DNA of 51,367 nucleotides, from NCBI GenBank assembly GCA_046260515.1, contig JBHEPB010000041.1:1-51367 (forward strand), read 5' to 3'. A program made the translations under genes and the position numbers. The stretch comes from Candidatus Binatia bacterium. Its GTDB lineage: Bacteria > Desulfobacterota > Binatia > UBA1149 > CAITLU01. Below the pieces are notes generated by a model. It did no database searches. It had not been told where the DNA came from and was given only the letters and a program-made list of their open reading frames with translations. Of the stretch, positions 17,422 through 51,367 are shown piece after piece; within the stretch, counting starts at the first letter, position 1, and each line of letters begins with the position of its first letter.

Positions 17422-17451
17422 GCGCCGGCGCCGCGATGCTTTCGCCGGCGC
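17422..17451. terminator. GC hairpin between convergent genes
   Basis: GCGCCGGCG (17422-17430) pairs with CGCCGGCGC (17443-17451). It lies between the SDR stop and the stop of the channel-like gene. There is no clear T-tract. Confidence 0.4.
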
Positions 17452-17462
17452 CTGGGACGCTC

Positions 17463-17828: not shown

Positions 17829-18023
17829 TTCTCGTCCAGGCGGAGTTCGCCGGTGTGTCCGATAGCCAACCACGCGGCATCGCCTTCCAGTTGAGTGAAA
17901 TGTTATGGAACACGCCCTGTGGGCCGATAGAAAGCGTAGGCCGACGTCAGCGCCGATGTTGCGGCGAAAAACCACGAGAGAGCGTTCGGCGATTCGTATA
18001 GGCCAAATCACGGCGTAGGCAAT

Positions 18024-18674: not shown

Positions 18675-18676
18675 AA

Positions 18677-19905: not shown

Positions 19906-20087
19906 GCTCCGGAGGTTCAGGGCCTGCTAGACTGATGTGGCCGGCCGCGCGCTACTGTCGCCAGCCCGCGCTGCGGCACGCGACCGGCCGTCTGGTTGAG
20001 TGAGTGAGACGACATGCACTGTATCCATGCGACTATACACTTCCGATTGCGTTTCGATCTGAGATGGCACGGAGGTGATTCTTGGCA

Positions 20088-20807: not shown

Positions 20808-20889
20808 ACTCAGGTCGCTCGGAAACAGGCCGTTGTGACAGCAAAGTTGCGGGCTACGCCGCTTCGGTAGCCGAGCGGGCTCTTGCTCA

Positions 20890-21350
20890 GATTGCTCCTC
20901 CGGCTAACTTCCCAATATCCCGCCCGATTTGTCCTTCAATATCTCCGCGATACGCCGCGATACACCGCGGCCAGCTGCGTATATTGCGTCCCGCCGCAGC
21001 CCGAGCAAGCCCAACCCTGCGATGTGCCACGCCATAGGTCCAGCGGCAGAGGCCATGCCCCGCGGCCGGTGTCCGCCGCCGAGTTCAGTGCCTCACGTCA
21101 CAGATGGCCGCATTCACGCAGCCACCCCAGCCGTGAACTTGCCCCGGAGCTGCGTCGCCAGGGCGGGCGGGCCGTGGCGATCCAGATCTTCACGCGGCAG
21201 GCACGGGATGATCGAGCCTACGGCTGGCGTAGCGGAGGCAAGCCTGGATGTCCGCCAGACCCAGATTCTGTGGATCCGCGATTACCTCTTGAGGAGCAGG
21301 CCAGTCGCAAGCAGGTCGAGGAAGACAACGACTGAAATAATCGGCGGTCG
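20890..21350 (-). pseudogene. possible decayed DUF433-like / DUF5615 (PIN-like) pair
   Basis: Hand translation of the minus strand gives RGPRPPIISVVVFLDLLATG. After a frame change it gives PQEVIADPQNLGLADIQACLRYASRRL, which looks like a DUF433 C-terminus. Its TGA (21189-21191) overlaps a GTG that opens VKIWIA. After another frame change comes PPALATQLRGKFTAGVAA, resembling the N-terminus of DUF5615-type partners. Downstream there are several stops and frameshifts. Recognition is from memory of family consensus only. Confidence 0.3.
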
Positions 21351-21419
21351 CGGCCCACGCAAGACTTCAGGTCCGCATGCGACCGCCCGACCGGTCAAGC
21401 GAATCGCCCGTCGCCACTT

Positions 21420-21689
21420 CTACAGCTGGCGTAACAATCGCTCGTATTCAGGGTGCGTCCCAATCCAGAACCAAACGACGTCCTGTCCGTCGAGCGTCGC
21501 CACCGCGCGGTAGCCGAGCCCGATGCGAGCAGAGTAGATCGGGAGCGTCGGGTGGACGCGCTTGAACTGCAGCCCAGGATGGGAGGGGTCGTCTCGGAAC
21601 AGCCGGTAGGCATGTCGCGCTCGACGACGCACCTGGGCTGGGAGTGCCGCCAACGCGGCGCGGAATCTCGCGGTGGTCCGCGAAGTCAT
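21420..21689 (-). CDS. type II toxin, RelE/ParE superfamily
   Basis: 89 aa with PGLQFKRVHPTLPIYSARIGLGYRAVATLDGQDVVWFWIGTHPEYERLL. Its start overlaps the upstream antitoxin stop (ATGA). Confidence 0.8.
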   Translation of the reverse strand: MTSRTTARFRAALAALPAQVRRRARHAYRLFRDDPSHPGLQFKRVHPTLPIYSARIGLGYRAVATLDGQDVVWFWIGTHPEYERLLRQL

Positions 21690-21904
21690 AGTGCGTCGGG
21701 ATCTAGTGGCTTCGACAGGCCCGCGCGGTGCTCGCGGAGGGCTTCCTCTGCGAGGCGCTCCAGAGTCGGAAGAGAACCGGCGATCGCTGCGTCGAAAGCC
21801 TCTTCAGCGCGGAGTTCCTCGAGAATCGCTTCCGCGAGTTCGTCCTGCTGCTGGATGGGCAGCTTGGAGGCGATCTCGAATGCCTTCTGAAGCGCGGTCG
21901 TCAT
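21686..21904 (-). CDS. cognate antitoxin (small acidic helical protein)
   Basis: Internal ATG 21904. The product reads MTTALQKAFEIASKLPIQQQDELAEAILEELRAEE..., 72 aa. It is coupled to the toxin gene. Confidence 0.7.
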   Translation of the reverse strand: MTTALQKAFEIASKLPIQQQDELAEAILEELRAEEAFDAAIAGSLPTLERLAEEALREHRAGLSKPLDPDAL

Positions 21905-22021
21905 GGCGACAAGATACTCCGTTCCGCGAGGCTCGGGCAAATCCCAAATTGCGGCTGACTTCCAAGTATCCCGCCCCGCGACCCTCGACAATGCGTCCCG
22001 GCCCGCCCTCCAGAACAACCC

Positions 22022-31756: not shown

Positions 31757-31773
31757 GGCATCCTCCGGGGGCG

Positions 31774-33141
31774 CTAGGGCGCGAACGTGGTGGTGGTGGT
31801 GGATTCGGGAATGGTGCACTGCAGGTCCACGTCCAGCCCGGCGCAACTCCTCAGGATGAGCAGGGCGTCGGTGGCGGTGACGGTGCCGCTCGAGTCCACG
31901 TCGCAGGTGCAAAGCTCGCAAGCGCGAAGGTCGAGGGCCGCCTGCAGCACGAACACGGCGTTGACCACGCAGCGGTTGTTGCTGAAGGGGTGCCCGCAGA
32001 GTCGGCAGGCGGCGGCCTCTTCGTCGCAGGTGTCCGTGCAGCCGGGCCCACTGGCGCAGGCCGGCTCGTAGAGGCAGGCCCCGGTCTCGACATCGCAGGA
32101 GTCGATGGTGCAGGCCGTGCCGTCGTTGCACTGGAAATCGTTGGTGCAGCCACAGGTGCAGTCGTTGACGCAGGTCTGGACGCCGCCGCACTCCTCGTTG
32201 CCGCCGCCGGCCGGGTCACATTCTTCGCCATCGTCGAGCACGCCGTTGCCGCAAGGGGCCGAGCCGGCGCCGAGGTCGAGCATCATCGCCACCAGGCTGT
32301 GGCAGTCGCCGGTCGTGAGCATGCCGGAGAAGGAGATCGTCTGGATGCCTGGAGAGCCGAAGGCCGCGGTGATGTCGAAGGTGTGGATGTCCCAGAGAGA
32401 GTCGTTGCCGGCGCGGCTGAAGCCGGCGTTGGGCACCGACTTGCCGTCCCAAAGCAGCGTCGTGTCGGGGATGTCGACCGTGGAGGCACCGGTGAACGAA
32501 ATCGTTCCGTCATCGAAGAACTGCCCGTCACCAGCGTGGATCTGGGCCAGGACCGTTCCCCCGGTGTAGTTGATGTTGTCCAAGGTGGCGGTCCAGCCGT
32601 TGGCGTCGCCCGCAGGAAACCCGGTCAGGATGAAATCGGAGTCGTTGCCCTCGAAGAAGACGAGGTCGCTGTCGTTGTCCGGGTTGCCGTCGTTGAAGAG
32701 CACGATCAGGGAAGCGCCGTTGCCGTTGTGGCCGACCTGGGCGTTGAGGCCCGAGATCGGGTAGCTGCCGTTGCCGCCAACCAGGCGGGTGACGTCGGCG
32801 AAGAAGGCCCGGCTGCTGCCGTTGCCCCAGCAGTTGGTCTCGGCGTCGCCGAGGCTGACGCCGGTCACGTTCTCGCCGGCGAAGCTGATCGTGGGGTTGT
32901 CGTACACGGCCAGGGAGGAGCCGTTGTCGATACCGTGCCAGTAGAGGAAGGCCTTGCGCACGCTGCCGGCGACGCCGGCAACCGTGAGAGTGCCGGGGCC
33001 GTTGCCGATGCCGCCGATGCCGGCCGAAACGTAGTCCGTGCGGGACTCGGTACGCCCGAGGCGCACCGGCGTTGCCGACGCCGACGACGCAAGGACAACG
33101 ATTCCCGACACCACCAGACTGGCCATGATAGCTCTCGACAT
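31774..33141 (-). CDS. secreted protein: N-terminal domain of unknown function (about 290 aa), Cys-rich region, and the same dockerin-like C-terminal module
   Basis: ATG 33141 (alternative 33126) gives the signal peptide MSRAIMASLVVSGIVVLASSASA. The N-domain contains VRKAFLYWHGIDN, AFFADVTRLVGGNGSY and GASLIVLFNDGNPDNDSD. The protein then continues through CGNGVLDDGEECD and ends CDVDSSGTVTATDALLILRSC...TTTTTFAP. Confidence 0.8.
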   Translation of the reverse strand: MSRAIMASLVVSGIVVLASSASATPVRLGRTESRTDYVSAGIGGIGNGPGTLTVAGVAGSVRKAFLYWHGIDNGSSLAVYDNPTISFAGENVTGVSLGDAETNCWGNGSSRAFFADVTRLVGGNGSYPISGLNAQVGHNGNGASLIVLFNDGNPDNDSDLVFFEGNDSDFILTGFPAGDANGWTATLDNINYTGGTVLAQIHAGDGQFFDDGTISFTGASTVDIPDTTLLWDGKSVPNAGFSRAGNDSLWDIHTFDITAAFGSPGIQTISFSGMLTTGDCHSLVAMMLDLGAGSAPCGNGVLDDGEECDPAGGGNEECGGVQTCVNDCTCGCTNDFQCNDGTACTIDSCDVETGACLYEPACASGPGCTDTCDEEAAACRLCGHPFSNNRCVVNAVFVLQAALDLRACELCTCDVDSSGTVTATDALLILRSCAGLDVDLQCTIPESTTTTTFAP

Positions 33142-33280
33142 TCCCTTCCCCCCTGCGGGCATCCCTCGTGCCCGATCGAAGGGGCCACGATGCCCCGTGC
33201 TCCGCGCCCACGTCAAACCGTCGCTGTCTGCCCCGCGTGCGATGGACGCAGCCTCCGGTGCGCCGCTACACTGCCCCCTC

Positions 33281-35491
33281 ATGCCTGCCGCCCCGTCGAG
33301 ACTCCGGCTGACCCCGATGCGGATCGCTGTCGCCTGCGGCATCGCGCTGGCGGTCATCCGTTTTGTCGGGATCACCCCTCTGGACCTGCTCGACGCCCGG
33401 GCCGTGGACCTTCGCCTGATCGCTCGCGGACCCCAGGCGGCCTCGACCGAAGTGGTGATCGTGGCCGTGGACAACGCCGCCATCGAGCAGGTGGGGCGCT
33501 GGCCGTGGTCGCGCACCATGCTGGCTACCCTCCTCGAGCGTATCGATGCCGCCGAACCCCTCGTCGTCGGCTTCGACATCGTGCAGTCCGAGGCCACGGC
33601 CGTGCCGGACCTCGGCGGCCTGGCCGACCGCGTGGACAAGGGTTCGCTGGAGCAGGTGGCCCGCGTATTGGCCGACGGCAGCCCGGAGGACCGTGCCCTG
33701 GCCGTCGCCGTGAAGAAGTCGGGACGCGCAGTGCTTGGCTATTTCTTCGACTTCTCCGAGGGTGCCCACGCCGGCGACGGCGATGAAGCCATGACGAGCT
33801 ACGGCGCGGTGCAGTCCCAGGCCAGGGCGGCCGGCGAGGGCGGCGAATCCTACCTGCCCCACGCCAAAGCCGTGGTCAGCAACCTGCCCATGCTGACGGA
33901 GGCGGCCCGGGCGACGGGCTACTTCAACACCTTGCCGGATCCCGGCGACGGCCATTTCCGCCGCTTGCCGATGGTGGTGCGTTCCGGCGAACGCATGGCG
34001 ATGCCGCTGGCGCTTTCGATGCTGGCGGCGGCCTGGCCCGATCGCCAGCCGCGGCTGCGCATCGCGGACTACGGGGTGGAAGTCGTGCACCTCGGCAAGC
34101 AGGCGATCCCGGTGGCCGAGGACGGCCAGGCTTTGCTCAACTTCCGCGGACCGGGGCGCACCTTCCGCCACGTGCCCGCCGGCGACGTGCTCACGGGCAA
34201 GTCGGATCCGGAACTGCTGCGGGGCAAGCTGGTGCTGGTGGGAGTAACGGCCACCGCGGTGGGGGACATCCGCGCGACGGCCTTCGACGGCGTTTATCCC
34301 GGCGTCGAGATCCACGCGACTGCTCTCGACAACGTCCTGCGCGACGATTTCCTCGACCAGCCGCGCTGGACGGTGCTGGTGGAGATCGGCGCCATCTTCT
34401 TCGGCGTGCTGGTGCTCGGGTGGGCTCTCAGCCGCTTGCGCGGCGTGGGCGCGGCGGTGGTGGGCGGAGTCCTGGTGGCAGCATACCTGGGGCTCAGCCA
34501 GTGGCTCTTCCTCGCCACCGGGGTGCCGCTCGGCATCGTCTATCCCCTGGTCGCCATCGCGCTGGTCTACATGGCGATCAGCGTCCACCACTTCGTGACC
34601 GTAGACCTCGAGAAGCGCCGCACCCGCGAGGCCTTCAGCCGCTACCTCAATCCGGAGCTGGCCCGCCTGGTGAGCGAGAACCCGGACATGCTCCAACTCG
34701 GCGGCTCGCGGGCCCATCTCACGGTGCTGTTTTCGGACATCCGCGGCTTCACCTCGATCTCCGAAGGGCTGGAGCCGGAAACGCTGGTCGAGGTCCTCAA
34801 CGTCTACCTCGGCGAGATGACCGACATCATCTTCGAGCACGACGGCACCCTCGACAAGTACATCGGCGACGCGATCATGGCGGTGTGGGGCGCGCCGGTG
34901 GCCTCCGAGCACCACGCGGCTTCGGCCTGTTCGGCGGCCCTCGACATGGGCGCGAGGCTGGCGGAGCGCCGCGAGGAGTGGATGGCCCGGGGCTGGCCGA
35001 AGATCGCGGCGGGCATCGGCCTGCACACCGGCGACATGGTGGTGGGCAACATGGGGTCGGCCGCCCACCTCAGCTACACGGTGATGGGCGACAACGTGAA
35101 CCTCGGCTCGCGCCTGGAGGGCCTGACGAAGAACTACGGCGTGAGCCTGCTCATCAGCGAGGCGACGCGCGACGCGGCGGGCGACGCTTTTCTTTCCCGC
35201 GAACTCGACCTGGTGGCGGTGAAGGGCAAGGCGCTGCCGGTCCGGATCTTCGAGTTGCTAGGCCGCGCGAGCGACAAGGAACTCTGGCAGGACCTGATCG
35301 GCTCCTTCGAGGAAGGACTCGCGATGTTCCGGGCGCGGCGCTGGGCGGAAGCCGAAGCGGTCTTCGCTTCCATCCTCGAGCGTCGCCCCGACGACGGCCC
35401 CTCGCGCCTCTACGTCGGCCGCTGCCAGACCTACGCCGCCACTCCCCCACCTCCCGAATGGACCGGCGTCACCGTCATGGAAACCAAGTAG
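33281..35491 (+). CDS. CHASE2 sensor domain-containing class III adenylate/guanylate cyclase
   Basis: The CHASE2 part contains VIVAVDNAAIEQVGRWPWSRTMLATLLERI. TM segments follow. The cyclase core contains LTVLFSDIRGFTSISE and KYIGDAIMAVWGAP. The start is ATG 33281 or 33317. Confidence 0.85.
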   Translation: MPAAPSRLRLTPMRIAVACGIALAVIRFVGITPLDLLDARAVDLRLIARGPQAASTEVVIVAVDNAAIEQVGRWPWSRTMLATLLERIDAAEPLVVGFDIVQSEATAVPDLGGLADRVDKGSLEQVARVLADGSPEDRALAVAVKKSGRAVLGYFFDFSEGAHAGDGDEAMTSYGAVQSQARAAGEGGESYLPHAKAVVSNLPMLTEAARATGYFNTLPDPGDGHFRRLPMVVRSGERMAMPLALSMLAAAWPDRQPRLRIADYGVEVVHLGKQAIPVAEDGQALLNFRGPGRTFRHVPAGDVLTGKSDPELLRGKLVLVGVTATAVGDIRATAFDGVYPGVEIHATALDNVLRDDFLDQPRWTVLVEIGAIFFGVLVLGWALSRLRGVGAAVVGGVLVAAYLGLSQWLFLATGVPLGIVYPLVAIALVYMAISVHHFVTVDLEKRRTREAFSRYLNPELARLVSENPDMLQLGGSRAHLTVLFSDIRGFTSISEGLEPETLVEVLNVYLGEMTDIIFEHDGTLDKYIGDAIMAVWGAPVASEHHAASACSAALDMGARLAERREEWMARGWPKIAAGIGLHTGDMVVGNMGSAAHLSYTVMGDNVNLGSRLEGLTKNYGVSLLISEATRDAAGDAFLSRELDLVAVKGKALPVRIFELLGRASDKELWQDLIGSFEEGLAMFRARRWAEAEAVFASILERRPDDGPSRLYVGRCQTYAATPPPPEWTGVTVMETK

Positions 35492-35762: not shown

Positions 35763-35842
35763 TGGAGGGAAGGCGCCGGTTTGTGCGCGCGAACCTTGCT
35801 GTTGGAGGGAAGGCGCCGGTTTGTGCGCGCGAACCTTGCTGT
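35763..35842 (+). repeat. 40-nt tandem direct repeat (2 perfect units) related to the outer arm of repeat copy 3
   Basis: TGGAGGGAAGGCGCCGGTTTGTGCGCGCGAACCTTGCTGT occurs twice back to back. A degenerate unit precedes it (35721-35762). The next unit runs into the arm of copy 3 (TGGAGGTCGGGCGCCGGGGGCGTGCGTGCGGG). Confidence 0.85.
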
Positions 35843-35846
35843 TGGA

Positions 35847-35936
35847 GGTCGGGCGCCGGGGGCGTGCGTGCGGGCGTCTCCGCAGCGAGCGCAGCGAGCG
35901 AGGACTAGCCCGCGCGCACGCCCCCGGTGCCCGACC
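35847..35936 (-). repeat. palindromic intergenic repeat element, copy 3 (inverted orientation, 29-bp stem with 2 mismatches)
   Basis: GGTCGGGCGCCGGGGGCGTGCGTGCGGGC (35847-35875) pairs with GCCCGCGCGCACGCCCCCGGTGCCCGACC (35908-35936). The loop is the reverse complement of the copy 1 loop (GTCTCCGCAGCGAGCGCAGCGAGCGAGGACTA). Confidence 0.8.
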
Positions 35937-35981: not shown

Positions 35982-36872
35982 CTAGAAACGCACGTCAACG
36001 TCGGTGGGGGCTTCGAGGACCGGCTGCGGTTGGCCGAGGAGGTCGCCGCCGGTGTGGCCGGGGGCGTCGGGGGGAAGGTCGGCCAGGGGCTCGCTGCCGC
36101 TGGTGCCGGTCGTTCCGTTGGTGCCGCCCGTCGGGGTTTCGAAGACGTTGCCGTCGGCCGTGTCGGGCAGGGGAACCTGCTTGCCGCCGAAGGCCGGGTC
36201 TTCGAGGAGAAGCGTCTCCGGCAGTCCGCCGCCGGGCAGGTCGAGGCCGGCCATCAGGCGCTGGTAGCGCTCGTCGTCGGTGGTGATCTGGCGCGGCGTC
36301 GTCGGGTACTTGCCCTTGGCGATCTCGGTGATTTCGTTGGCGTGCACCAGCACGCCGCGGTTCTTGCGGTCGATGGTGCCGTGCACTTCCACCGTGCCGC
36401 CAAGGCCGAGCACTTCGCTGAAGGCCGTCGAGGCGTCGTGGGACATCACGAACTCGGTGCCGCGCACGCCCGAGACCGCCGTCGCGGTCTCGATCCGGTA
36501 GGTGCCCTGGCCGCCCGAGTAGTAGTCGCTGACCAGCGCGCGCACCTTGCCGCCGAGGAGGCGGATCAGGGTACTGGCAGCGCCCTTGCTGGCGTCGAAG
36601 ACGGTTTCGTCGATGACGAGCGTGGTGTCGTCGCCGAGGTTCAGCACCGAGTCGTCGGCGAACAGGATGCGGGCGCGGCCCGGGTTGCCGGTGCGGATGG
36701 TGTCGCCGGACTGCACCGGGCTGCCGACGATCGCCGCCGCGAAGGCGCCGCCGCGGCCGATCTCGACCGTGCCTTCCAGGCTGACGACCGTGCCGGCGTC
36801 GTCGGCGCGGACGGTGGTGGCGGCGAACGTGAGAACCAGGGCTGTCAGTACCGTCAGGGTCGCTCGTAGCAT
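35982..36872 (-). CDS. FecR domain-containing periplasmic protein
   Basis: The signal peptide is MLRATLTVLTALVLTFAATTVRA. The FecR-like region reads GSPVQSGDTIRTGNPGRARILFADDSVLNLGDDTTLVID...VSGVRGTEF. Its ATG lies one base after the stop of the upstream gene. Confidence 0.8.
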   Translation of the reverse strand: MLRATLTVLTALVLTFAATTVRADDAGTVVSLEGTVEIGRGGAFAAAIVGSPVQSGDTIRTGNPGRARILFADDSVLNLGDDTTLVIDETVFDASKGAASTLIRLLGGKVRALVSDYYSGGQGTYRIETATAVSGVRGTEFVMSHDASTAFSEVLGLGGTVEVHGTIDRKNRGVLVHANEITEIAKGKYPTTPRQITTDDERYQRLMAGLDLPGGGLPETLLLEDPAFGGKQVPLPDTADGNVFETPTGGTNGTTGTSGSEPLADLPPDAPGHTGGDLLGQPQPVLEAPTDVDVRF

Positions 36873-36873
36873 C

Positions 36874-38430
36874 TCAGTACCTCAGCTCGACGCCGAGCGA
36901 AGTGATGTGGCGGCTGTACTCGAAGGAAACCTTGTCCGAGTCGTTGCGGCGGTAAATGTAGGAGCCCGTGAGCCACACGTAGTCGGCCACGCGCTTCTCG
37001 ATCCGCGCCAGGATCTGGTGCTCGTCGTCGTCGCGGTTGAAGCTGGCGGCCGAGTAGTCCTCCAGCTTGTAGACGTAGGCGGCGTCCACTGCGAGATCCT
37101 CGTCGAAGGCCCAGCCCAGGCCGATCTCGAACTGGTGCCCGTGGTAGTTGTACTGCTTGCCGATCTCCACGTCGGCCAGGTCGGAGTCGAAGCGGTAGCC
37201 CACGAAGATGTTGCGGTCGCGCTCGCCGAGCGAGAAGAACTGCCTGGCGCCGGCGGCGTGGTTGTAGGAATCGCGAATCGGGTCGAAGGAGTTGGGCAGG
37301 AAGTCGCGGCGGCGCATGCGGTAGTAGAACTCGCTGCGGCCGAAAGCGCCCTCGTCCACGCTGATCCAGGGCAGCACCGTGCCGCCGTTGAGGAGGCTGT
37401 CCTCGTTCAGCAGGGAGTGCTCGTAGGCGGAGGTGACGCCGAAGGTGACGGGGCCGGCCAGGTAGCGCGCGGTGCCGCCTACCGTGTGGGTCTGCACGTC
37501 GAAGGCCTCGAGGTCGAAGTGGAGGCTCTGCAGGAAGTCGTAGCCGAGGGCCAGGTTGAAGGAGGGCATGGACACGACGGCGTAGCGTCCGCCGGCCGTC
37601 ATCACCGCGCGGCCGTCCGATTCCTCGCTGATGGCGTACACGTTCTGCGCGACGGCGTTGTCGTCGGGAGCCAGCGCCACGTTGCTGTCGTACTCGAGGG
37701 CGAGGCCGGCATAGAGGCGGTAGCGCCGCGCGCCGCCGTCGCCGATGCGGTCGAGGAAGGCCGAAGCCTCGCGGGCGTAAGGACTGTCGCCGCCCTGGGT
37801 GCTCACCCACGTGAACTGCTCGACGGCGGCGTCCACGTCGCCGGCTCGCCAGGCCGCGAGGCCCTGGTAGTAGCGCGCCGGCAGGGCCCGGGTCGCATCC
37901 ATGTTCTCCACCTTGGCCAGCGCGGCGCGCGCGGCTTCGTTGTTGCCGCGGCGGCTCTCGACGATGCCGAGCAGCATGGTCGCCTCGGCTGCGCTGCGGC
38001 CCTTCTGCGAGGCGATCTCCAGCTCGGCGGCAGCCGCGTCGTAGCGCTCCAGGCGGTAGAGGGCGTAGCCGAGTTCGAGGCGATCCCTCTCGATGGACGG
38101 GTCGTTCGCCGCCACCACCTTCCTCAGGTCGGTCACGGCCTCTTCGAAGCGGCCGGCGTGGCCGTAGCCGAGGGCGCGGTAGTAGAGGCTGCGGACATCC
38201 GCGGGGTCGGCGATCACGGCCTGCTCGAACAGCGCCAGCGCGGCGTCCGTGCGTCCGGCGTGGAGCTCGGCGATGCCTTTGGTGTAGAGGCGCTCGGAGC
38301 GGCCGCGTTCGGTGGCGCCGGCGGATGTCGCCATCACGCAGGCGAGCAGCATGGCCGTGGCCAGCAGCACGCGGCTTCGGGTCGAGTGCGAAAACGAGGC
38401 CGGGGACTTGTCACGCTTCAGAGGGGACAT
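36874..38430 (-). CDS. TPR-repeat protein fused to an outer-membrane beta-barrel-like C-terminal domain
   Basis: ATG 38430 is preceded by GAGGAG. The signal peptide is RVLLATAMLLACVMATSAGA. TPR helices follow. The C-terminal half shows alternating-pattern strands (YAGLALEYDSN, GYRFDSD, LTGSYIYRRNDS) and ends LGVELRY with a terminal aromatic residue. The track ORF to 39879 is an out-of-frame extension. Confidence 0.8.
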   Translation of the reverse strand: MSPLKRDKSPASFSHSTRSRVLLATAMLLACVMATSAGATERGRSERLYTKGIAELHAGRTDAALALFEQAVIADPADVRSLYYRALGYGHAGRFEEAVTDLRKVVAANDPSIERDRLELGYALYRLERYDAAAAELEIASQKGRSAAEATMLLGIVESRRGNNEAARAALAKVENMDATRALPARYYQGLAAWRAGDVDAAVEQFTWVSTQGGDSPYAREASAFLDRIGDGGARRYRLYAGLALEYDSNVALAPDDNAVAQNVYAISEESDGRAVMTAGGRYAVVSMPSFNLALGYDFLQSLHFDLEAFDVQTHTVGGTARYLAGPVTFGVTSAYEHSLLNEDSLLNGGTVLPWISVDEGAFGRSEFYYRMRRRDFLPNSFDPIRDSYNHAAGARQFFSLGERDRNIFVGYRFDSDLADVEIGKQYNYHGHQFEIGLGWAFDEDLAVDAAYVYKLEDYSAASFNRDDDEHQILARIEKRVADYVWLTGSYIYRRNDSDKVSFEYSRHITSLGVELRY

Positions 38431-39803
38431 GGGGTCTCCTCGACCACGACGGTCGCATTGGCAGGCGAAAGGTCGGGGGCCGTGGCCTCGGTCACCTGGA
38501 TCACCACGTTGGTAAGGTCGAGGGGCGCCACCTGCCGGAACTCGCACTGGGCCAGGCCCGTCGGTCCCGAGAAGGTCTCGGCGCTGACGATCGCTGTGGT
38601 GAGGGTGCCCTGGTCGTCGTCGTTGAACGAGGCCAGCGTGGAGTTGGGATTGGTTTCGAGCAGGTTGAAGCAGGAGACGTCCTCGCCGCTTCCCGGGAAC
38701 TCGCCGTCGCTGTTGCCGTAGCCGACGTCGTAGGAGATGCCCACGAGATCGACGGCGTTCGTCACGGAGAACTTCACGCAGAAGGAAGCGGGGAAGCCGA
38801 GCGTGGTGGTCGTCGTGTCGATGGTGGTGGTCGTGGACGAAGACGTGGTGGTGTCGATGGTATTGGTGGTGGTGGTTGTCGTCGCACCCGGCGGGACGTT
38901 GAAGGTCGTGTTCGACTCCATGTCGCGAGGGGTTGACGCGAGGTTGCTCGCCCGGATGCGAAGCTGGGCCAGGCCCTCGGGAATCACCTGCGGGGAGACC
39001 GACGTGACGAGGAGCCCCTGCACCTCGAGCTCGCCGTCCTCGCTGCAGTCGGGAAGTTCGGCGTCGCCGTCGCGGCACTCTTCGCTGGTCAGGATGTCGG
39101 CCTGGACCGTCACCGGTTCGTTGCGGATGCGGATGCCCAGGTCGGCATCGACCGGGTGGTTGGCGTCCACCACCGCAAAGCTCACTGTGGGAGTCGCGCT
39201 GTCGGCCGCGCCGCCGTCCTCGGGGTCGAGGTCGAGGAGGAAGGGCAGCGAGTGCACGTCCACGTTCACGATGTTCTGGAAGCCGGGGACCACGTCCACC
39301 GGGATTTCCTCGCTGCCGAAGCTGGGCAGCGTGTTCTGGGCGCCGCTGCAGGGCGATCCCTCGCCGGGAGGACGGGTCGCGCAGGTGGCCGAAACACCCG
39401 CCGACGGCGCGAACTGCGTGGGGAAGCCGTGGACTTCGAGACTGCCGAGGCCGGGGGACACGTTGGCCAGCAGGATGCGACGGTCCTCGAAGGGCTGGCT
39501 GCCGCGCTTCACGACGAGGCAGCAGGGCGGGGCCGCTTCCGGCCTCAGGATGAAACGAATGGCGCTGACCGAGGGAGGGATGGGCGTGTCGAAGGCGGCC
39601 GCCGGCAGGCCGTCGCCGGCCGTCGAAGCAGCGGCGCCCGCCTGCTGCTCCCAGGCCACGCGGAAGGCGACGTCGCCCCCGGATGTCACGGCGCCCGAGT
39701 CTCCGCCCCCGCCGCATCCGGCGGAAAGAGCGGTGACGGCCGCTGCGGCCAGGGCCCTCGCAAGGTTCGAACGTGACCGGCTTCGCTGTGTTTGGATCAC
39801 CAT
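38418..39803 (-). CDS. lipoprotein of unknown function with an internal poly-Thr linker
   Basis: Lipobox VTALSAGC followed by GGGGDSG. The linker is PPGATTTTTTNTIDTTTSSSTTTTIDTTTTTLGFP. A Cys-containing C-terminal domain of about 125 aa follows. The stop overlaps the downstream start by 13 nt. Confidence 0.75.
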   Translation of the reverse strand: MVIQTQRSRSRSNLARALAAAAVTALSAGCGGGGDSGAVTSGGDVAFRVAWEQQAGAAASTAGDGLPAAAFDTPIPPSVSAIRFILRPEAAPPCCLVVKRGSQPFEDRRILLANVSPGLGSLEVHGFPTQFAPSAGVSATCATRPPGEGSPCSGAQNTLPSFGSEEIPVDVVPGFQNIVNVDVHSLPFLLDLDPEDGGAADSATPTVSFAVVDANHPVDADLGIRIRNEPVTVQADILTSEECRDGDAELPDCSEDGELEVQGLLVTSVSPQVIPEGLAQLRIRASNLASTPRDMESNTTFNVPPGATTTTTTNTIDTTTSSSTTTTIDTTTTTLGFPASFCVKFSVTNAVDLVGISYDVGYGNSDGEFPGSGEDVSCFNLLETNPNSTLASFNDDDQGTLTTAIVSAETFSGPTGLAQCEFRQVAPLDLTNVVIQVTEATAPDLSPANATVVVEETPCPL

Positions 39804-40288
39804 GAATTGTCCGCGTGCTGGTGGAGAACGGAAGCTCGAAACCGCCGGAAGCTATACGAACTCGGCCATCGCTACACAAGCGATTCCGGCTGCGCCCGGC
39901 GGGCCGGGGGTGCGACCCTTCCTGACGACAGGCTGAGGCCTCGAGGGATGTGGGAACGAGATCTCCGGGGCGTCACCGGAACAGGCGAACCAACGGGTCG
40001 AGTACAGGCGCTCGAAAGAGATTGACCCGATCCACTGCGTCCGCACCCGGCCCGGTTCGAGATGTGGTGCGACGGCGGAGGCTTCTCGCCGAAGCGGACA
40101 CGGTCGGCGAGAGCCCGCTGCGAGCGGGCGACAGTCCGCTACCTGAGTATGGGGTGGGCACTTCCGATTGGAGGCGGCGCCCCGCAAGGCCGATGCGGCG
40201 GTCCCAGGTCGCGGCACCAGATGAGGTCGCCCGGTTGCGTCCTTTGATAGCCGGCGTCGCCTGCCGGATTGAGCCATTTGGGTATATG

Positions 40289-40338: not shown

Positions 40339-41511
40339 ATGATGATTGCCCGCGACCGACTGTCGGCTGTTCTGCGGGATGCGCTCGAGCGTCGTCCTGT
40401 GGTGGTCCTGACCGGACCTCGCCAGTGCGGAAAGACAACGCTGGCCCGACAGGTGCTCGGCGCGCCCGCTCCCACCTATTTCGACCTGGAGGATCCGCGT
40501 TCCCGTGCGCTCTTCGACGAGCCCATGACGGCTCTCGAATCCCTTACGGGTCTCGTCGTGATCGACCAGGTGCAAAGGGCGCCCGACCTCTTTCCGATCC
40601 TGCGTGTGCTCGCCGACCGTCGTCCGCTGCCCGCGCGCTTCCTCATCCTGGGCAGTGCGTCGGGATCGCTGCTGCGCCAGAGCTCCGAGAGCCTCGCCGG
40701 TCGCGTGGAGTATCTGCGCATGGGGGGGGTCGCCCTCGATGAAGTCGATTTCGGACGAGTGGACCATCTTTGGCAGCGCGGCGGCTTCCCGGAGAGCCTG
40801 CTGGCGCCTGACGAGAGCGACTCCATTCGCTGGCGGCGGAATTTCATCGACACGCTCGTCGAGCGGGACCTGCCGCAGTGGGGCGTGCAGGTGTCCACCA
40901 CCGCGATGCGCCGATTCTGGACGATGGTGGCCCACTACCACGGCCAGATCTGGAAGAACGCCGATCCGGCGCGCGCCCTCGGGGTGAGTGAACCCACCGT
41001 GCGCCGTTATCTCGACCTGCTCACCGACGCTTTGGTCCTGCGTCAGTTGCAGCCGTGGCACGCCAACCTGCGCAAGAGGCAGGTCAAGTCTCCCAAGGTC
41101 TACGTGCGCGACACGGGGTTGTTGCACGAGCTGCTCGGCATCGCGGACCAGGATGAACTGCTGCACCACCCGAAACTCGGCTCGTCGTGGGAAGGGTTCG
41201 CCATCGAACAGGTCCTCGCCACGGAACCGCATACCGACGCATCGTTTTGGGCCACCCACCAGGGCGCCGAGATCGACCTGCTCCTCCAGCGCCGCGGCAA
41301 GCTGTTCGGAGTGGAGTGCAAAAGGGTCGATGCGCCGCGCATGACCCCGTCAATGCGCATCGCGCTCGACGACCTGGGGCTGGAGCGCATTGCCGTGATC
41401 TATCCGGGGACCAGGCGCTACGCCCTGGCGGATCGGGTGGAGGCGGTGCCGTTGGCGACACTGGCCACGCCGGGGCGATTGTTCGGGGAACCGGATGGAG
41501 AGGGGCATTGA
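40339..41511 (+). CDS. AAA+ ATPase with a C-terminal DUF4143-type domain
   Basis: Walker A VVVLTGPRQCGKTTLA. It also has VVIDQVQRAPDLF, PKVYVRDTGLLH and EIDLLL, typical of the AAA_14/DUF4143 architecture. Confidence 0.8.
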   Translation: MMIARDRLSAVLRDALERRPVVVLTGPRQCGKTTLARQVLGAPAPTYFDLEDPRSRALFDEPMTALESLTGLVVIDQVQRAPDLFPILRVLADRRPLPARFLILGSASGSLLRQSSESLAGRVEYLRMGGVALDEVDFGRVDHLWQRGGFPESLLAPDESDSIRWRRNFIDTLVERDLPQWGVQVSTTAMRRFWTMVAHYHGQIWKNADPARALGVSEPTVRRYLDLLTDALVLRQLQPWHANLRKRQVKSPKVYVRDTGLLHELLGIADQDELLHHPKLGSSWEGFAIEQVLATEPHTDASFWATHQGAEIDLLLQRRGKLFGVECKRVDAPRMTPSMRIALDDLGLERIAVIYPGTRRYALADRVEAVPLATLATPGRLFGEPDGEGH

Positions 41512-41638
41512 CCGATGCCGCTCGCGGTGCGGCGTGCCACCCGGGCACGACCTGCCGATCGGCTCGCGGATGCTCGAAAATCAGGACGTTCGCGTCCACC
41601 GCGATGCCGACCGAAGCCCTTGCCGGGCGCGGCCAAAA

Positions 41639-41658
41639 GTATATCATCGGGTATATCA
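41639..41658. promoter_or_regulatory. direct repeat GTATATCA x2 (12-nt spacing) upstream of the antitoxin gene; candidate promoter or operator
   Basis: GTATATCA occurs at 41639-41646 and at 41651-41658. AAGGAG and ATG 41669 follow immediately. Confidence 0.35.
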
Positions 41659-41668
41659 AGGAGTTTAT

Positions 41669-41908
41669 ATGGGAAAGCCGTTGATGCTGCAGCAGGCTGA
41701 CGACGATCGGATCGAGGCGCTCAAACGAAGGCTCAAGGCCCCGACCAAGATCGCCGTCGTCCGTTCCGCCCTCGATCTTCTCGAAGAAAAGGCCGCGCGC
41801 GACGCACGCGTCGTCAGGTGGCGCAGGGCGGTCAAGGTCGTCGCGGCCGAGAGCCGCAAGGTGCAGAAGGAATTCGCGGCTCACAGTCCTCTCCACGAGA
41901 TCGAGTAG
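41669..41908 (+). CDS. antitoxin (ribbon-helix-helix-like) of the MazF/PemK toxin
   Basis: AAGGAG RBS. The 79-aa product reads MGKPLMLQQADDDRIEALKRRLKAPTKIAVVRSALDLLEE. It lies directly upstream of the toxin gene. Confidence 0.7.
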   Translation: MGKPLMLQQADDDRIEALKRRLKAPTKIAVVRSALDLLEEKAARDARVVRWRRAVKVVAAESRKVQKEFAAHSPLHEIE

Positions 41909-41913
41909 ACCGC

Positions 41914-42261
41914 GTGCCGGTTCCGCAACAGTGGCATGTCTACGTCGTTGATCTCGCGCCCCGTGTAGGCACGAAGCCGGGCAAGCAGCGTCCCTGCCTG
42001 GCGATTCAGCCGCAGGAGTTCGCGGAGGCCGGCCTGAACAGCTCCGTTGTACTTCCGATCACGAGCAGGGTCGCTGCGGATGCAGCTCCGTTACGAGTGC
42101 GCCTGCCCGCGGGTACCTGCGGACTCTCCGCCGAGAGCGATGTGATGATCGACCAGGTCCTGGCGTGGAGCAACGATCGGTTTCGCAAAGACCTGGGCCC
42201 CTTGCCGGCTGCGTTGCGCGTAGAGGTCCGGGAGGCGTTGCAAGAGTTTCTGGACCTCTGA
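41914..42261 (+). CDS. type II toxin, MazF/PemK family endoribonuclease
   Basis: GTG 41914 gives VPVPQQWHVYVVDLAPRVGTKPGKQRPCLAIQP...VVLPITSR...SDVMIDQV, the typical PemK pattern. Confidence 0.8.
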   Translation: MPVPQQWHVYVVDLAPRVGTKPGKQRPCLAIQPQEFAEAGLNSSVVLPITSRVAADAAPLRVRLPAGTCGLSAESDVMIDQVLAWSNDRFRKDLGPLPAALRVEVREALQEFLDL

Positions 42262-42431
42262 GGCGTAGCGCATCCACAGTCGCCCCCGGAGCTGACCCCA
42301 GTCCTCCCAAGGACAAGCGGCACTGGAGGGGGGAGACCTCCCAGGGGCCGGGTACCGGGCCGGGCAAGTTCAACTATCCTGTTAATATTCAAGCAGTTAG
42401 TGGATGTACGCTCCTGGCATTCGACTGGGCT

Positions 42432-42516
42432 TGCGGAGAATGATGGGCCTATTCTCCGCAAGTAGTGCGAAGAATTCTTGTCGCTCTGCGGAGAATAGAG
42501 GCTACAATCTCCGCAG
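42432..42516. promoter_or_regulatory. two palindromes sharing a GCGGAGA core upstream of fic
   Basis: TGCGGAGAAT (42432-42441) pairs with ATTCTCCGCA (42451-42460). CTGCGGAGA (42486-42494) pairs with TCTCCGCAG (42508-42516). The second overlaps the RBS region of the fic gene. Confidence 0.4.
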
Positions 42517-42528
42517 GAGGTGCGGATA

Positions 42529-43635
42529 ATGTACATTCACCAGTCCCCAGACTGGCCGAAGTTCCGCTGGGACAAAGACCAGCTTGCCGAGCCACTGGCG
42601 GACGTTCGCCATCGGCAAGGGCGGTTGATCGGCCGTATGGAAGCCTTGGGCTTCGGTCTTCGCGAGGAAGCCGTCCTTCGCACGCTCACCGACGATGTCC
42701 TGAAGACCAGTGAGATCGAGGGCGAAAAACTGGATTCCGAACAGGTTCGCTCCTCTATCGCGCGCCGCCTCGGCATGGACATCGGCGCCCTGACCCCGGC
42801 CGATCGCAACGTCGAAGGGATCGTCGAGATGATGCTCGACGCAACCCGGGACCACGATCAGCCGCTGACGGCGGAGCGCCTGTTCTCATGGCACGCCGCA
42901 CTGTTCCCGACAGGGCGCAGCGGAATGACCAGGATTACGGTGGGAGCATGGCGGGACGACAGCACCGGCCCGCTGACCGTGGTCTCTGGTCCGATCTCAA
43001 AAGAGAAGGTGCGCTATGAGGCCCCGAGAGCGGCACGTGTTGATGGCGAGATGCGCGCCTTTCTTCGATGGTTCAACGCCGCGTCGGAGAGCGATCCCGT
43101 CCTACGCGCCGCCTTGGCGCACTTCTGGTACGTGACGATTCACGCGTTCGACGACGGCAATGGCAGAATTGCGCGCGCCATCGCCGACATGCTTCTCGCG
43201 CGTTCGGAGCAGAGTCCCCACCGCTTTTACAGCATGTCGGCCCAGATTCGGACCGAACGTTCAGACTACTACAACATCCTGGAACGTACCCAGAAAGGGA
43301 CGCTCGACATCACGCCATGGATGGGCTGGTTTCTTGGCTGCCTTGGTCGTGCCATCGACGGGGCGCAATCGACGCTGAGTGCCGTTCTTGTCAAGGCGCG
43401 ATTCTGGGAGCGTCACCAGCGCGTTTCGCTGAATGACCGGCAGCGCCTCGTCCTGAACCGCTTGTTGAGCGGCTTCGAAGGAAAGCTCACCAGTACGAAG
43501 TACGCGCTGCTCGCGAAATGCTCACAAGACACCGCCGGCCGCGACATTCACGCGCTCGTTGAGCAGGATATCCTCGTCCGCAGTGCATCGGGAGGGCGTA
43601 GCACGAGCTACGATCTCGTGCTCGACGCGGTGTAG
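42529..43635 (+). CDS. Fic family protein (DUF4172 N-terminus, Fic core, C-terminal winged-helix-like region)
   Basis: MYIHQSPDWPKFRW start. The Fic motif is HAFDDGNGRIARA. An upstream TSEIEG matches the [S/T]xxxE[G/N] inhibitory helix motif. GGAGG RBS. Confidence 0.85.
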   Translation: MYIHQSPDWPKFRWDKDQLAEPLADVRHRQGRLIGRMEALGFGLREEAVLRTLTDDVLKTSEIEGEKLDSEQVRSSIARRLGMDIGALTPADRNVEGIVEMMLDATRDHDQPLTAERLFSWHAALFPTGRSGMTRITVGAWRDDSTGPLTVVSGPISKEKVRYEAPRAARVDGEMRAFLRWFNAASESDPVLRAALAHFWYVTIHAFDDGNGRIARAIADMLLARSEQSPHRFYSMSAQIRTERSDYYNILERTQKGTLDITPWMGWFLGCLGRAIDGAQSTLSAVLVKARFWERHQRVSLNDRQRLVLNRLLSGFEGKLTSTKYALLAKCSQDTAGRDIHALVEQDILVRSASGGRSTSYDLVLDAV

Positions 43636-43665
43636 GCATCTCTTTCGCTGTGGTGTGCCGATGCC

Positions 43666-44135
43666 TTAGTCTTCGTAGGCCGGCGCGCGTCCGTCGCGCC
43701 GGGCCCGGATGGCCTCATCGAGGTTCTGCGTCGTCATCCGCACCAGGAGCTGGTTGCGGTTCTCCAGGTCGATGGCGGCCTTCAGGCTGCCGGCCTCCAG
43801 GTTGGACCACAGCACTTCCTTGGTCATGGCGAGGCCGTGGGCGCTGAAACCGCACATGCGTCCGGCCAGTTCGAGGGCCGCGGGCAGGAGGTCGCCGTCG
43901 TCGACCGCGCGTGAGACGAGGCCGATGGCGGCGGCCTCCTCGGCGTCCACCTCGCGCCCGGACAGGATGATCTCGTTCGCGCGTGACGCGCCGATCAGGC
44001 GAGGCAGAAGAAAGCTCACCCCACGCCGCGAAACGTTGCCGACCTCGCGGCAATGCGGATGTCGGCCCCCAGCGTCAGGCACATGCCACCCCCGTACGCC
44101 GGGCCGTTCAGCGCCGCGAGGAGAGGCTGGGCACA
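43666..44135 (-). pseudogene. 5'-truncated, frameshifted copy of the 3' part of the enoyl-CoA hydratase gene found at 47409-48245
   Basis: Hand translation gives AQPLLAALNGPAYGGGMCLTLGADIRIAARSATFRGV. A deletion of about 36 nt and a frameshift follow, then VSFLLPRLIGASRANEIILSGREVDA...DEAIRARRDGRAPAYED. It aligns with the intact paralogue (PQPLIAAINGPSYGGGMCLPLGADIRIAARSATFRGAGINNGLTGTECGVSFLLPRLIG...). Nucleotide identity is roughly four-fifths by eye. Confidence 0.8.
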
Positions 44136-44137
44136 CG

Positions 44138-44674
44138 TTGCCATTTTGCCACCTGACCTTGAGGGCCGAAAAACCTAAAGATTCTCGATACCCGAAGGAA
44201 CTCAGGACGATTGGCGACCGGCTCAAGCAGCGCCGGCTCGACCTCGGCGTCCGGCAGCAGGACGTGGCTGCGAAGCTCGGTGTGTCGTCGTCTACCGTAC
44301 GAGACTGGGAACTGGGTCACAAAACGCCCAAGCTCCAGCACCGGCCGACTCTCCACGCATTCCTTGACGAGGAGCCGCCAAGGGAGATCGCGACGACGTT
44401 TCCTGAGGGCCTTCGGGCCGCCCGTCGGGCAATGGGGCTCAGCCGGAGACGCCTCGCGGGACTCGTCCGGTTCGGTTGCCCGGACACAATTGCCGATTGG
44501 GAGCATGGGATCCGCATGCCGATGCCGAGGCACCTGGAGCGCCTCAAGCTGTTCTTCGAGACGGCGGGTCGGTCGCTCGAATTCGTCGATGTGGCAGTGG
44601 AGGAGTCCTCCGCCCGCCGATCTGAGGGTACGTCGAGGGCGTGGGCGACGAGACGCGCGAGGCGCCGGATCTAG
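44138..44674 (+). CDS. XRE-family regulator with two helix-turn-helix modules
   Basis: The two modules are LRTIGDRLKQRRLDLGVRQQDVAAKLGVSSSTVRDWELG and LRAARRAMGLSRRRLAGLVRFGCPDTIADWEHG. No ATG or GTG start is available. TTG 44138 lies after GAGGAGAGG, and TTG 44159 is the alternative. The upstream part of track ORF 43709-44674 is antisense to the pseudogene. Confidence 0.6.
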   Translation: MPFCHLTLRAEKPKDSRYPKELRTIGDRLKQRRLDLGVRQQDVAAKLGVSSSTVRDWELGHKTPKLQHRPTLHAFLDEEPPREIATTFPEGLRAARRAMGLSRRRLAGLVRFGCPDTIADWEHGIRMPMPRHLERLKLFFETAGRSLEFVDVAVEESSARRSEGTSRAWATRRARRRI

Positions 44675-49184: not shown

Positions 49185-51205
49185 ATGTCCTCCCATTACC
49201 GGTCCGACGTCGATGGCCTGAGGGCCGTCTCGATCCTCCTCGTCGTGATGTTCCACGCGTTCCCGGCGTTGCTGCCGGGCGGCTACCTCGGCGTGGACGT
49301 GTTCTTCGTGATCTCGGGCTTCCTGATCACCGACCTCATGCTGCGCCGCGCCGCGCAAGGCTTCTCCAGTTTGGGCGAGTTCTATGCACGACGCGTGCGA
49401 CGCCTGTTCCCCGCCCTGTTGGCGGTAACGGTGGCTTGCCTCGTCTTCGGTTGGTTTGCGCTTCTTCCCGGGGAGTACGCCCAACTCGGCCGGCACGCGC
49501 TCGCCGCATCCGTGTTCGTGCCGAACGTGGCGTTCTGGTCGGAGGCCGGCTACTGGGATACGGCATCCCGGCTCAAGCCGCTCCTGCACCTGTGGTCCCT
49601 CGGCGTCGAAGAGCAATTCTACCTGGTCTGGCCAGCACTCGTGTTGCTGCTCGGCCGCACGCGATTGCCCTTCCCGGCCTGGGTGCTGCCCGTAGCGGCG
49701 ATCTCGTTCGCCGCGAACTTGTACGCGGCGAACGCTGATCCTGCTGCGGCGTTTTTCCTGCCACAATTCCGGATATGGGAGTTGATGTTGGGCGGCCTGC
49801 TGGCGCACAGAAACTTCAGCCCAGCAGCCCAGCAGCCCAGCAGCCCACCAGCCCAGTCGACGTTCCGGCCTGCCCAGGTGCCGACGTGGACAGGTTGTCG
49901 GACGGGACGCGTTTGCTGGCGAGCGCGCAGTCGGTCGCGGGCTTGGCGATGATCGTCGCGGCCGCTGCACTGTTCGGAGGCGAAACGACGCACTCGGCGC
50001 TGCCGGTGCTGATGCCGGCCCTCGGCGCACTGCTGGTGATCGGTGCAGGCGCTTCAGGTGGGGTCAACCGCGTGCTGCTCGGGAACCCGGCAATGGTGCT
50101 CCTCGGCAAGGTCAGCTACCCGCTCTACCTGTGGCACTGGCCGGCCCTGTCCTTCCTGACGATCGTCGAATCCGGCACCGAACCGTGGACGTGGAGGCTC
50201 GGCGCTGTCGGCGCCAGCTTGGTGCTCGCGTGGCTGACCTGGCGCTTTCTCGAGCTTCCGGTGCGACGCTTGCCGAAGGCACGGGCGGTGGCCCCACTGC
50301 TTGCGCTGTCGATCACGACCGGCGTGGTAGGGGGCCTGGTGCACGTCGAGGGCGGGTTCCCTCATCGCATGCGAGACCTGGATTCGCAGTTCGAGGCGTT
50401 CGAATGGGAATCCATGGGGCTGTTCGAAAGGGACGACTGCTCCGCGAGCCTTGGTGTGCCCGGCCGCTGTCTGAGCAACGGGCGCCCGCACAGCGTAGCC
50501 GTCGTCGGCGACAGCTTCTCGACGAACATGTTCCTCATCTTGCAGGAGCTGCATCGCGACGACGGTGTGGGAGTGATGCGGCTCGGGAGGGCTGGCTGCC
50601 TGCCGTTTTTCGGCGTGGAGAGGTACCTCGGAAGTGCCAGCCAGCAGTGTCGCGACGCGATGAACCGCAACCTGGAACACGTGCTCCAGGACCAGGCCAT
50701 CACGACTGTAGTGCTGTCGCTGAGGGAATCGTTGTACCTCGGCCGTGCCGGCGGCAACCGATTGGAACTCGCCGGAGAGGTCAACCCACGTCCTCCCTTC
50801 GAGGTGTTCCGCAGTGCTCTCGAGCAGACTGTTGCCCGCTACTCCGCCGCCGGCAAGCACGTGATCTACGCGTTCGGTTGGCCGGAGCTGTCCTTCGACC
50901 CGAAGGCCTGCGTCGATGTGCGCCCGCTGCGGCTGCGATCCTACGAGCAGGGGGCCTGCACGATGGACCGCCGCGACGTGGAGGCGCGCAGCGCGGGCTA
51001 CCGCCGGATGGTGCTGGACGTGCTCGCCAGGTTCCCGCGCACCTCGTACTGGGACCCGTATCGCGTTCTCTGCGATGACCTTGCCTGCTACTCGAAGCGG
51101 AACGGAGTGATGCTGTACCGGGACGGCCATCACCTGTCGCTGCCAGGCTGCGAGTACCTGGGGAGCCGCTTTACCCTCGAACCTGTGGCGGGTGACGACC
51201 GATGA
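49185..51205 (+). pseudogene. OafA-type O-acyltransferase (acyltransferase-3 membrane domain plus SGNH domain) split by a frameshift inside an octanucleotide repeat
   Basis: Frame 1 (49185-49952) reads MSSHYRSDVDGLRAVSILLVVMFHAF...HLWSLGVEEQFYLVWP...FRIWELMLGGLLAHRNF. Frame 2 (to 51205) reads ...VLLGKVSYPLYLWHWP...VAVVGDSFS...YRDGHHLS. Removing one 8-nt unit joins the two frames into an ORF of about 670 codons. This was verified by hand codon walking. Confidence 0.8.
49817..49856 (+). repeat. octanucleotide tandem repeat CCAGCAGC (3 perfect units, 1 degenerate unit, partial units at both ends)
   Basis: CAGC-CCAGCAGC-CCAGCAGC-CCAGCAGC-CCACCAGC-CCAG. The perfect units are at 49821-49828, 49829-49836 and 49837-49844. 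Confidence 0.9.
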
Positions 51206-51220
51206 GAGCAGGCAGCGGGC

Positions 51221-51262
51221 AAAAAAAGACCCGGCGTTCCTCTGGCCTTGGAACGCCGGGTC
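51221..51262 (-). terminator. intrinsic terminator for leftward transcription entering from the right window edge
   Basis: 13-bp perfect stem: GACCCGGCGTTCC (51228-51240) pairs with GGAACGCCGGGTC (51250-51262). On the minus strand the hairpin is followed by T7 (A7 at 51221-51227 on the plus strand). Confidence 0.6.
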
Positions 51263-51269
51263 TGGGTTG

Positions 51270-51349
51270 CCCGAAGTCTCGGGGGGGAGGTCAGACTTCG
51301 GGCGGGAACTGTCTCGATGGGGGGGGGGGGGTCAGTCGAGACAGTTCCC
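51270..51349. repeat. two further stacked hairpins with poly-G loops
   Basis: CCCGAAGTCT (51270-51279) pairs with AGACTTCGGG (51293-51302), with a loop containing G7. GGGAACTGTCTCGA (51304-51317) pairs with TCGAGACAGTTCCC (51336-51349), with a loop containing G13 (51319-51331). Confidence 0.7.
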
Positions 51350-51367
51350 GGGACCCTGTAGAGCACG

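Follow-up and report, generated by a model that had tools for sequence, protein, structure and literature searches.

A frameshifted AT3-SGNH O-acyltransferase gene with an octanucleotide tandem repeat in a Candidatus Binatia bacterium

The split gene and its product

The 51,367-nt stretch of contig JBHEPB010000041.1 from a Candidatus Binatia bacterium (in the following called the window) carries on its forward strand, between positions 49185 and 51205, two overlapping open reading frames (ORFs) that represent one O-acyltransferase gene cut by a frameshift. The upstream ORF (49185 to 49952) starts with an ATG at 49185, ends with the TGA at 49950-49952 and comprises 255 codons, which encode the N-terminal part of the AT3 domain with the predicted helices 1 to 6. 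The native sequence extends to about codon 211-224 and is followed by an out-of-frame tail that runs up to the TGA. The gene caller of the protein collection predicted this piece as well (P0121). The downstream coding part (49857 to 51205, + strand, TGA at 51203-51205) contributes the rest of AT3 with the predicted helices 7-10, followed by a putative 11th helix as a linker and by an SGNH domain. At the split, the frame changes in the -1 direction. The second frame opens at 49739 and extends to 51205; the first ATG lies at 49775, and the ORF has 476 codons. The version of this ORF in the protein collection is 439 aa long (P0001). An initial annotation had described the locus as an OafA-type acyltransferase with AT3 and SGNH domains, in which one frameshift separates the two gene parts. 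The ORF coordinates agree with this frameshift and the Pfam matches described below confirm the enzyme class. The second frame had been given as open from 49775 to 51205, of which the end is correct, but the actual opening lies at 49739.

The read-through product of the two parts matches PF01757 (Acyl_transf_3) with 125.6 bits (cut-off 31) over residues 8-351 and PF19040 (SGNH fused to AT3) with 126.3 bits (cut-off 27) over residues 422-660. The PF19040 domain is encoded by positions 50456 to 51172 of the + strand and includes the GDS serine Ser441 (50513-50515), Asp644 (51122-51124) and His647 (51131-51133), all three of which occupy invariant columns in an alignment with 19 homologues. The same alignment has invariant residues at R13 (agg, 49221-49223) and H24 (cac, 49254-49256), which form an R-X10-H motif (49221 to 49256, + strand) and are the counterparts of R14 and H25 of Salmonella OafB, two residues that have been named essential (PMC9833829). 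Judged by its domains and motif residues, the gene belongs to the AT3-SGNH sugar O-acyltransferases of the OafA/OafB/OatA type, and acyl transfer is its predicted activity. However, there is no single uninterrupted ORF for both domains, so the locus as it stands is a disrupted member of this class. The best named homologues found by searches of the protein collection belong to Halieaceae and Steroidobacteraceae (42-48% identity). The gene is located behind a GST gene at the contig end, and no lipopolysaccharide (LPS) or exopolysaccharide (EPS) cluster was found around it in the window.

The octanucleotide repeat and the position of the frameshift

Close to the end of the native part of the upstream ORF there is an octanucleotide tandem repeat on the + strand (49817 to 49856). 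Tandem Repeats Finder describes it with a period of 8, 5.0 copies of the unit CAGCCCAG, 93% matches and a score of 73, with one mismatch in unit 4. The initial annotation had counted three units. In its register there are indeed three perfect copies of CCAGCAGC (starting at 49821, 49829 and 49837, span 49821-49844), followed by CCACCAGC and then CCAG, but the program counts 5.0 units including the imperfect one. The repeat thus lies within the ORF and has a unit length that is not divisible by three. Computed deletion of one 8-nt unit yields an ORF of 2013 nt and 670 codons, which confirms the earlier claim that loss of exactly one octamer results in a reading frame of about 670 codons and normal size, since the aligned homologues span 641-681 aa. 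Adding 8 nt or removing 16 nt does not result in an intact ORF. A change by one unit therefore toggles between the full-length product of 670 codons and the present one of 255 codons.

The octamer tract is the only perfect tandem repeat with at least three copies of a unit of at least 7 nt in the whole 51-kb window. In dinucleotide shuffles, any such repeat occurred in one of 300 cases and a perfectly periodic run of 31 nt in none of 300. The tract is therefore well beyond chance.

Regarding the position of the shift, the alignment of homologues supports the first frame up to the sequence WELMLGGLLA (~49808) and the second one from ~49913 onwards. A change-point analysis of codon usage is flat from ~49800 to ~49896, with peaks at 49877-49879 and 49832-49834 that differ by 0.5 ln units. 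The interval of 49800-49885 proposed initially includes the tract, as stated, but the permissible range extends further to ~49896. Of the approximately 100 nt in which the shift can fall, the tract covers 40, and between ~49800 and ~49896 there is neither a homopolymer of at least 4 nt nor any repeat besides the octamer tract. Since changes in the unit number of tandem repeats are much more frequent than insertions or deletions (indels) in unique sequence, the gain of one octamer would be the most parsimonious lesion.

An AlphaFold model of the read-through protein, built on the 19-homologue alignment, has a predicted local distance difference test (pLDDT) score of 84 and a predicted template modelling score (pTM) of 0.81. 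It consists of a helical membrane bundle up to residue 385 and a subsequent alpha/beta domain. In a Foldseek search, only the SGNH half was recognised, with the alpha/beta domain resembling PatB and a GDSL esterase (target TM-scores 0.57-0.64), and a phmmer search of the protein against PDB chains gave no match. The only internal segments with a pLDDT below 50 are residues 119-127, which we take to be the known re-entrant-loop region, and residues 216-233. The latter are part of a 26-residue loop between the helices 193-210 and 237-260, and the repeat encodes about residues 212-222 in the initial part of this loop. In the model, the repeat is therefore predicted to encode a disordered loop that connects membrane helices 6 and 7 and tolerates changes in length.

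Related genes and their reading frames

Several relatives of the gene could be compared at this loop. The protein P0002 is intact, 675 aa long and 56% identical. The closest protein relative (P0122/P0241, on a 7.7-kb contig of JGI 3300071358) shares 72% identity in the N-terminal part and is split into two ORFs of 197 aa and 450 aa, the break lying inside the conserved motif FFLPHFR|WEL and thus at a non-repeat site. A further relative (P0242, on a 6.6-kb contig of JGI 3300041967) is represented by an SGNH-only ORF with 61% identity that overlaps an upstream 354-aa ORF by 4 nt, which would put a break near helix 11. This gene may thus be split as well, although the 354-aa ORF is without a Pfam record. 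The lesions of P0122/P0241 and P0242 were read from protein ends only. A more distant homologue (L083:5001-6930, contig_1463 of a long-read-style assembly) is split in the same loop as the gene in the window, without a repeat. Apart from this homologue, which was chosen because its split was known beforehand, all homologous genes examined are single-frame (80 of 81), although this set consists of the best tblastn matches and is thus biased towards intact genes.

The octamer repeat is absent from P0002 and from P0122/P0241. A syntenic relative, in which a GST gene likewise lies beside the AT3 gene, was detected in two groundwater runs with ~85% nucleotide identity in the AT3 gene and ~94% over the GST region; its loop starts with CGGATCCTTCATCATCGCGACGCGTCCGGC and ends with CGGGCCGACACGGCGACCGGCAGGCGGTTC, and there is no repeat in the 30 nt visible at each end. 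The tract is thus not shared by the orthologues at differing copy numbers, and judging from these relatives it is lineage-specific. The helix 6-7 loop itself is hypervariable, with an aligned length of 38 aa here, 36 aa in P0002, ~19 aa in P0122/P0241 and ~15 aa in Halieaceae-type homologues.

A second copy of the locus could not be recovered. The acyltransferase gene matched no public sequencing run, and for other parts of the window the matches to runs covered only 5-9% of words. Read searches with the flanks of the tract returned only relatives at ~85% identity or less. The scan of metagenome contigs yielded only relatives with at most 40% identity, in an output that was flooded by the conserved motif YPLYLWHW, and the scan of genome contigs with the SGNH half gave one match at 27%. 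Exact look-ups of P0001 and of the neighbouring GST protein found nothing, so there is no conspecific locus in the metagenome, genome and protein collections.

Some of the relatives carry slippage-prone repeats of another kind. The P0002 gene (L001:10732-10741, JGI 3300050207, contig Ga0502764_0000302) contains a G10 run at codon 244, within the same helix 6-7 loop, and this run is the sole homopolymer of at least 8 nt in the 22 kb of that locus. The other example is a distant AT3-SGNH gene with 35% identity from an AT-rich organism (L033:1254-1335, contig Ga0334722_10052852). Here, a Shine-Dalgarno sequence (GAGGA) precedes an ATG at 1262, which is followed by eight codons and a C16 run (1286-1301), and the acyltransferase frame is one base off the register of this ATG; no in-frame start was found ahead of a TTG at 1333. 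By its sequence, this arrangement resembles a poly-C phase switch that is OFF. Among the fetched loci, there are four independent G/C runs of at least 8 nt in 165 kb of AT3-SGNH genes compared to two or three in 486 kb of flanks, so such runs look mildly enriched in these genes, albeit with small numbers.

Integrity of the downstream part and of the assembly

Of the 53 residues past the shift that do not vary among the 19 homologues, 52 are kept. The mean identity to 18 outgroups is 43.7% in the rest of AT3 and 38.8% in the SGNH domain, compared to 41.9% and 37.5%, respectively, for the intact P0002. Neither the invariant residues nor the outgroup identities reveal any relaxed evolution or decay of the downstream part, and it follows that the break is recent, reversible or artefactual.

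About 25 other genes in the window have full-length Pfam matches. Among them are those for FeoB, DUF2079, MatE, ThyX, DsbD, deformylase and the CHASE2 cyclase as well as those for ankyrin-DUF1329, Fic, GST and enoyl-CoA hydratase. A frame plot of the GC content at third codon positions (GC3) did not reveal any other clear frameshift in the window. From the intact genes and the clean plot we conclude that the assembly is not riddled with indels. In the same plot, the frame changes at 38340-38460 (- strand), where the ORF 38418-39803 abuts a TPR-containing ORF (36874-39879). This could reflect two adjacent genes or a second frameshift.

Origin of the frameshift

The explanation that we prefer, although we hold it with somewhat less than even confidence, is that a bona fide AT3-SGNH O-acyltransferase was recently switched off by a real slipped-strand gain of one octamer unit, with reversion at a modest rate being possible. 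Slipped-strand mispairing would have added one 8-nt unit to the lineage-specific tract in the helix 6-7 loop. Translation from the ATG at 49185 would then leave the native frame inside the tract or just past it and stop at 49952, giving a 255-aa fragment that would lack helices 7-11 and the periplasmic SGNH domain, and from such a fragment no acyl transfer is expected. The frame would be regained by the loss of one unit or the gain of two. Because the lesion would lie within a tandem repeat, reversion should be far commoner than ordinary reversion, and ON revertants are expected in large populations. In our view, the tract is an incidental, weak simple-sequence repeat and not a demonstrably evolved contingency switch, and the break of P0122/P0241 at a non-repeat site fits ordinary gene loss in this clade.

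There are also observations that speak against a real, incidental unit gain. The allele is known from a single contig, and neither a read nor a second-strain copy is present in the collections searched. The codon statistics do not separate the tract from the adjacent positions 49857-49896 as the site of the shift. Finally, the G10 run of P0002 and the enrichment of G/C runs may hint at selection for switchability and thereby point towards true phase variation.

Such an evolved phase-variable locus, in which the tract has been kept since frequent gain and loss of units switch the O-acylation of a surface glycan, for instance under phage or grazer pressure, and in which the assembled allele represents the OFF phase, is conceivable but on balance unlikely. 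The location within the ORF of a repeat whose unit is not divisible by three, the toggling between full-length and truncated product by one unit and the otherwise pristine gene are all consistent with it, as are the G10 run that the intact P0002 has in this loop, the C16 run behind the Shine-Dalgarno sequence and ATG of the out-of-frame L033 gene, and the four G/C runs in AT3-SGNH genes against two or three in the much longer flanks. There is even a precedent in the same gene class, the oafA gene of Haemophilus influenzae with its GCAA repeats. Moreover, the tract reaches the cut-off of at least three units that was applied to tetra- to octanucleotide repeats in a survey (PMC7383803). However, with only three perfect units and an imperfect fourth one it represents the bare minimum of this survey, and the expected rate is low, about 1e-6 for three tetranucleotide units, for which switching at 0.5-2 x 10^-6 has been quoted (PMC7383803). 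In addition, the tract occurs in none of the relatives examined, a second one is missing in the 51 kb, its position one third into the ORF is away from the 5' end, and the gene lies outside any LPS or EPS cluster.

An even broader assumption would be that the helix 6-7 loop of the AT3-SGNH clade is a recurrent home of independent frameshift-prone repeats (the octamer x5 here, G10 in P0002), which would give free-living, high-GC environmental bacteria from soil, groundwater and estuary a stochastic ON/OFF acylation of their surface glycans. We regard this as doubtful. If it were true, contingency-locus behaviour would extend well beyond host-adapted pathogens and would include an unusual octanucleotide unit.

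It is also rather unlikely that the additional unit is an artefact of assembly or sequencing, or that the assembler chose a minority allele, and that the real gene is one unit shorter and intact. This would explain a lone frameshift in an otherwise perfect gene, located in a repeat of low complexity, a type of sequence in which consensus errors are concentrated, and known from one metagenomic contig without replicate. The distant homologue on the long-read-style contig_1463 is likewise split in the loop. However, the remaining genes of the window look intact and the shift interval is free of homopolymers of 4 nt or more. Short and long reads typically produce homopolymer errors of 1-2 nt, so a whole 8-nt unit would be atypical of either platform, and a tract of 40 nt is well inside one read.

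If, in contrast to a unit gain, the shift goes back to a small indel of the ordinary kind, of +1 or -2 nt, just 3' of the tract at 49857-49896, the repeat would be an in-frame bystander and the gene a plain nascent pseudogene. The change-point peak at 49877-49879 would fit such an indel, although it is tied within 0.5 ln units with the peak inside the tract. On direct reading of the sequence, the first frame also keeps a high GC3 for about 11 codons past the tract, and P0122/P0241 provide an example of a break at a non-repeat site. Nevertheless, the likelihood profile is flat and shows no real preference, there is no homopolymer as substrate, and non-repetitive DNA gains indels orders of magnitude more rarely than a tandem repeat of five units. 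By this general reasoning on mutation rates, we consider an ordinary indel to be improbable.

Finally, a functional split, in which the ribosome undergoes a programmed -1 frameshift or two separate polypeptides assemble with each other, would agree with the -1 direction of the frame change and with the two ORFs in other members of the clade, but we give it next to no credence, as the relatives break at different positions and only one of the 81 examined homologues departs from a single frame. Both versions of this idea were rejected, as the zero frame contains no X XXY YYZ slippery heptamer between 49739 and 49950 and no Shine-Dalgarno sequence is present ahead of the internal starts.

Comparison with known phase-variable genes

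The initial annotation had named a phase-variable oafA in Haemophilus, and the literature bears this out. The lipooligosaccharide O-acetylase gene oafA of H. influenzae is phase variable via GCAA repeats (PMC10505976, PMC9558356); the first Rd genome contained it in frameshifted form, and OFF alleles occur in genome sequences (PMC9558356). The gene in the window shares with it the AT3 family of O-acyltransferases, an in-ORF repeat with a unit not divisible by three and the toggling of the product by a change in unit number. However, the tracts of H. influenzae are long and have a 4-nt unit (PMC10505976), whereas here an 8-nt unit is present in three perfect and five total copies. The H. influenzae tract was present in 10 non-typeable (NTHi) strains that were probed and in 61 out of 105 complete genomes of NTHi, whereas the octamer tract is lineage-specific and lies in a mid-gene loop. 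Moreover, switching has been experimentally shown for oafA in an AT-rich, human-adapted pathogen, whereas the present gene belongs to an uncultured high-GC environmental bacterium.

Like OafA and OafB of Salmonella, the read-through protein combines AT3 with an SGNH domain and has the R-X10-H motif and the Ser, Asp and His residues of SGNH; the membrane location of AT3, the 11th helix behind it and the periplasmic location of SGNH are predicted to match as well. It differs from them in that the sequences are only distantly related and in that the gene is located outside a glycan cluster. The switching of Salmonella OafB is epigenetic, and no repeat is involved. Poly-G/C tracts make surface genes of Campylobacter, Neisseria and Bordetella homopolymer contingency genes. 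These follow the same principle of a slippage-prone repeat within a surface-modification gene, and the relatives P0002 (G10) and L033 (C16) carry tracts of this type, but the tract in the window is an octamer with a much lower expected rate.

To our knowledge, contingency loci have been documented almost only in host-associated pathogens. If the tract varies within populations, an uncultured environmental bacterium would provide a clear example of a surface-modifying enzyme that is switched by a repeat, and this would point to phage or predator pressure on cell-surface acylation in sediments and groundwater. If the extra unit is a one-off slippage or an assembly slip, the gene would be an ordinary disrupted accessory gene, which should be annotated as one frameshifted acyltransferase and not as two genes.

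Other features of the window

Some further features of the window deserve mention. A weak GC3 coding signal was observed at 17400-22000, where the two ORFs scanned, 17149-17913 and 20088-20807 (both on the - strand), have no Pfam match; this region is possibly foreign or non-coding DNA. A large ORF at 29336-32191 (- strand), also without Pfam match, contains 162-nt tandem repeats at 30182-30829 (2.4-2.8 copies, 75-77% matches), and GC3 is high on both strands of this region. Another tandem repeat, with a unit of 40 nt (35763-35859, 2.4 copies, 94% matches), sits between the gene of the CHASE2 adenylate/guanylate cyclase (33038-35491) and a FecR-domain gene (35982-36872, - strand). The interval 40339-44674 on the upstream side of the ankyrin-DUF1329 gene encodes an AAA/DUF4143 ATPase together with a DUF4172-Fic protein and an HTH protein, and this cluster looks like a mobile or defence-type islet.

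On the 3' side of the acyltransferase gene (51220-51350), an A7 run is followed by three consecutive perfect hairpins at 51227-51263, 51269-51303 and 51303-51350 with stems of 14, 11 and 15 bp, of which the second and third contain G7 and G13 in their loops. The first hairpin is possibly a terminator of the opposite strand. Copies of the hairpin element with ~85-97% identity are present on several estuary metagenome contigs, at greater depth than the gene, and the whole looks like a dispersed element similar to repetitive extragenic palindromic (REP) sequences.

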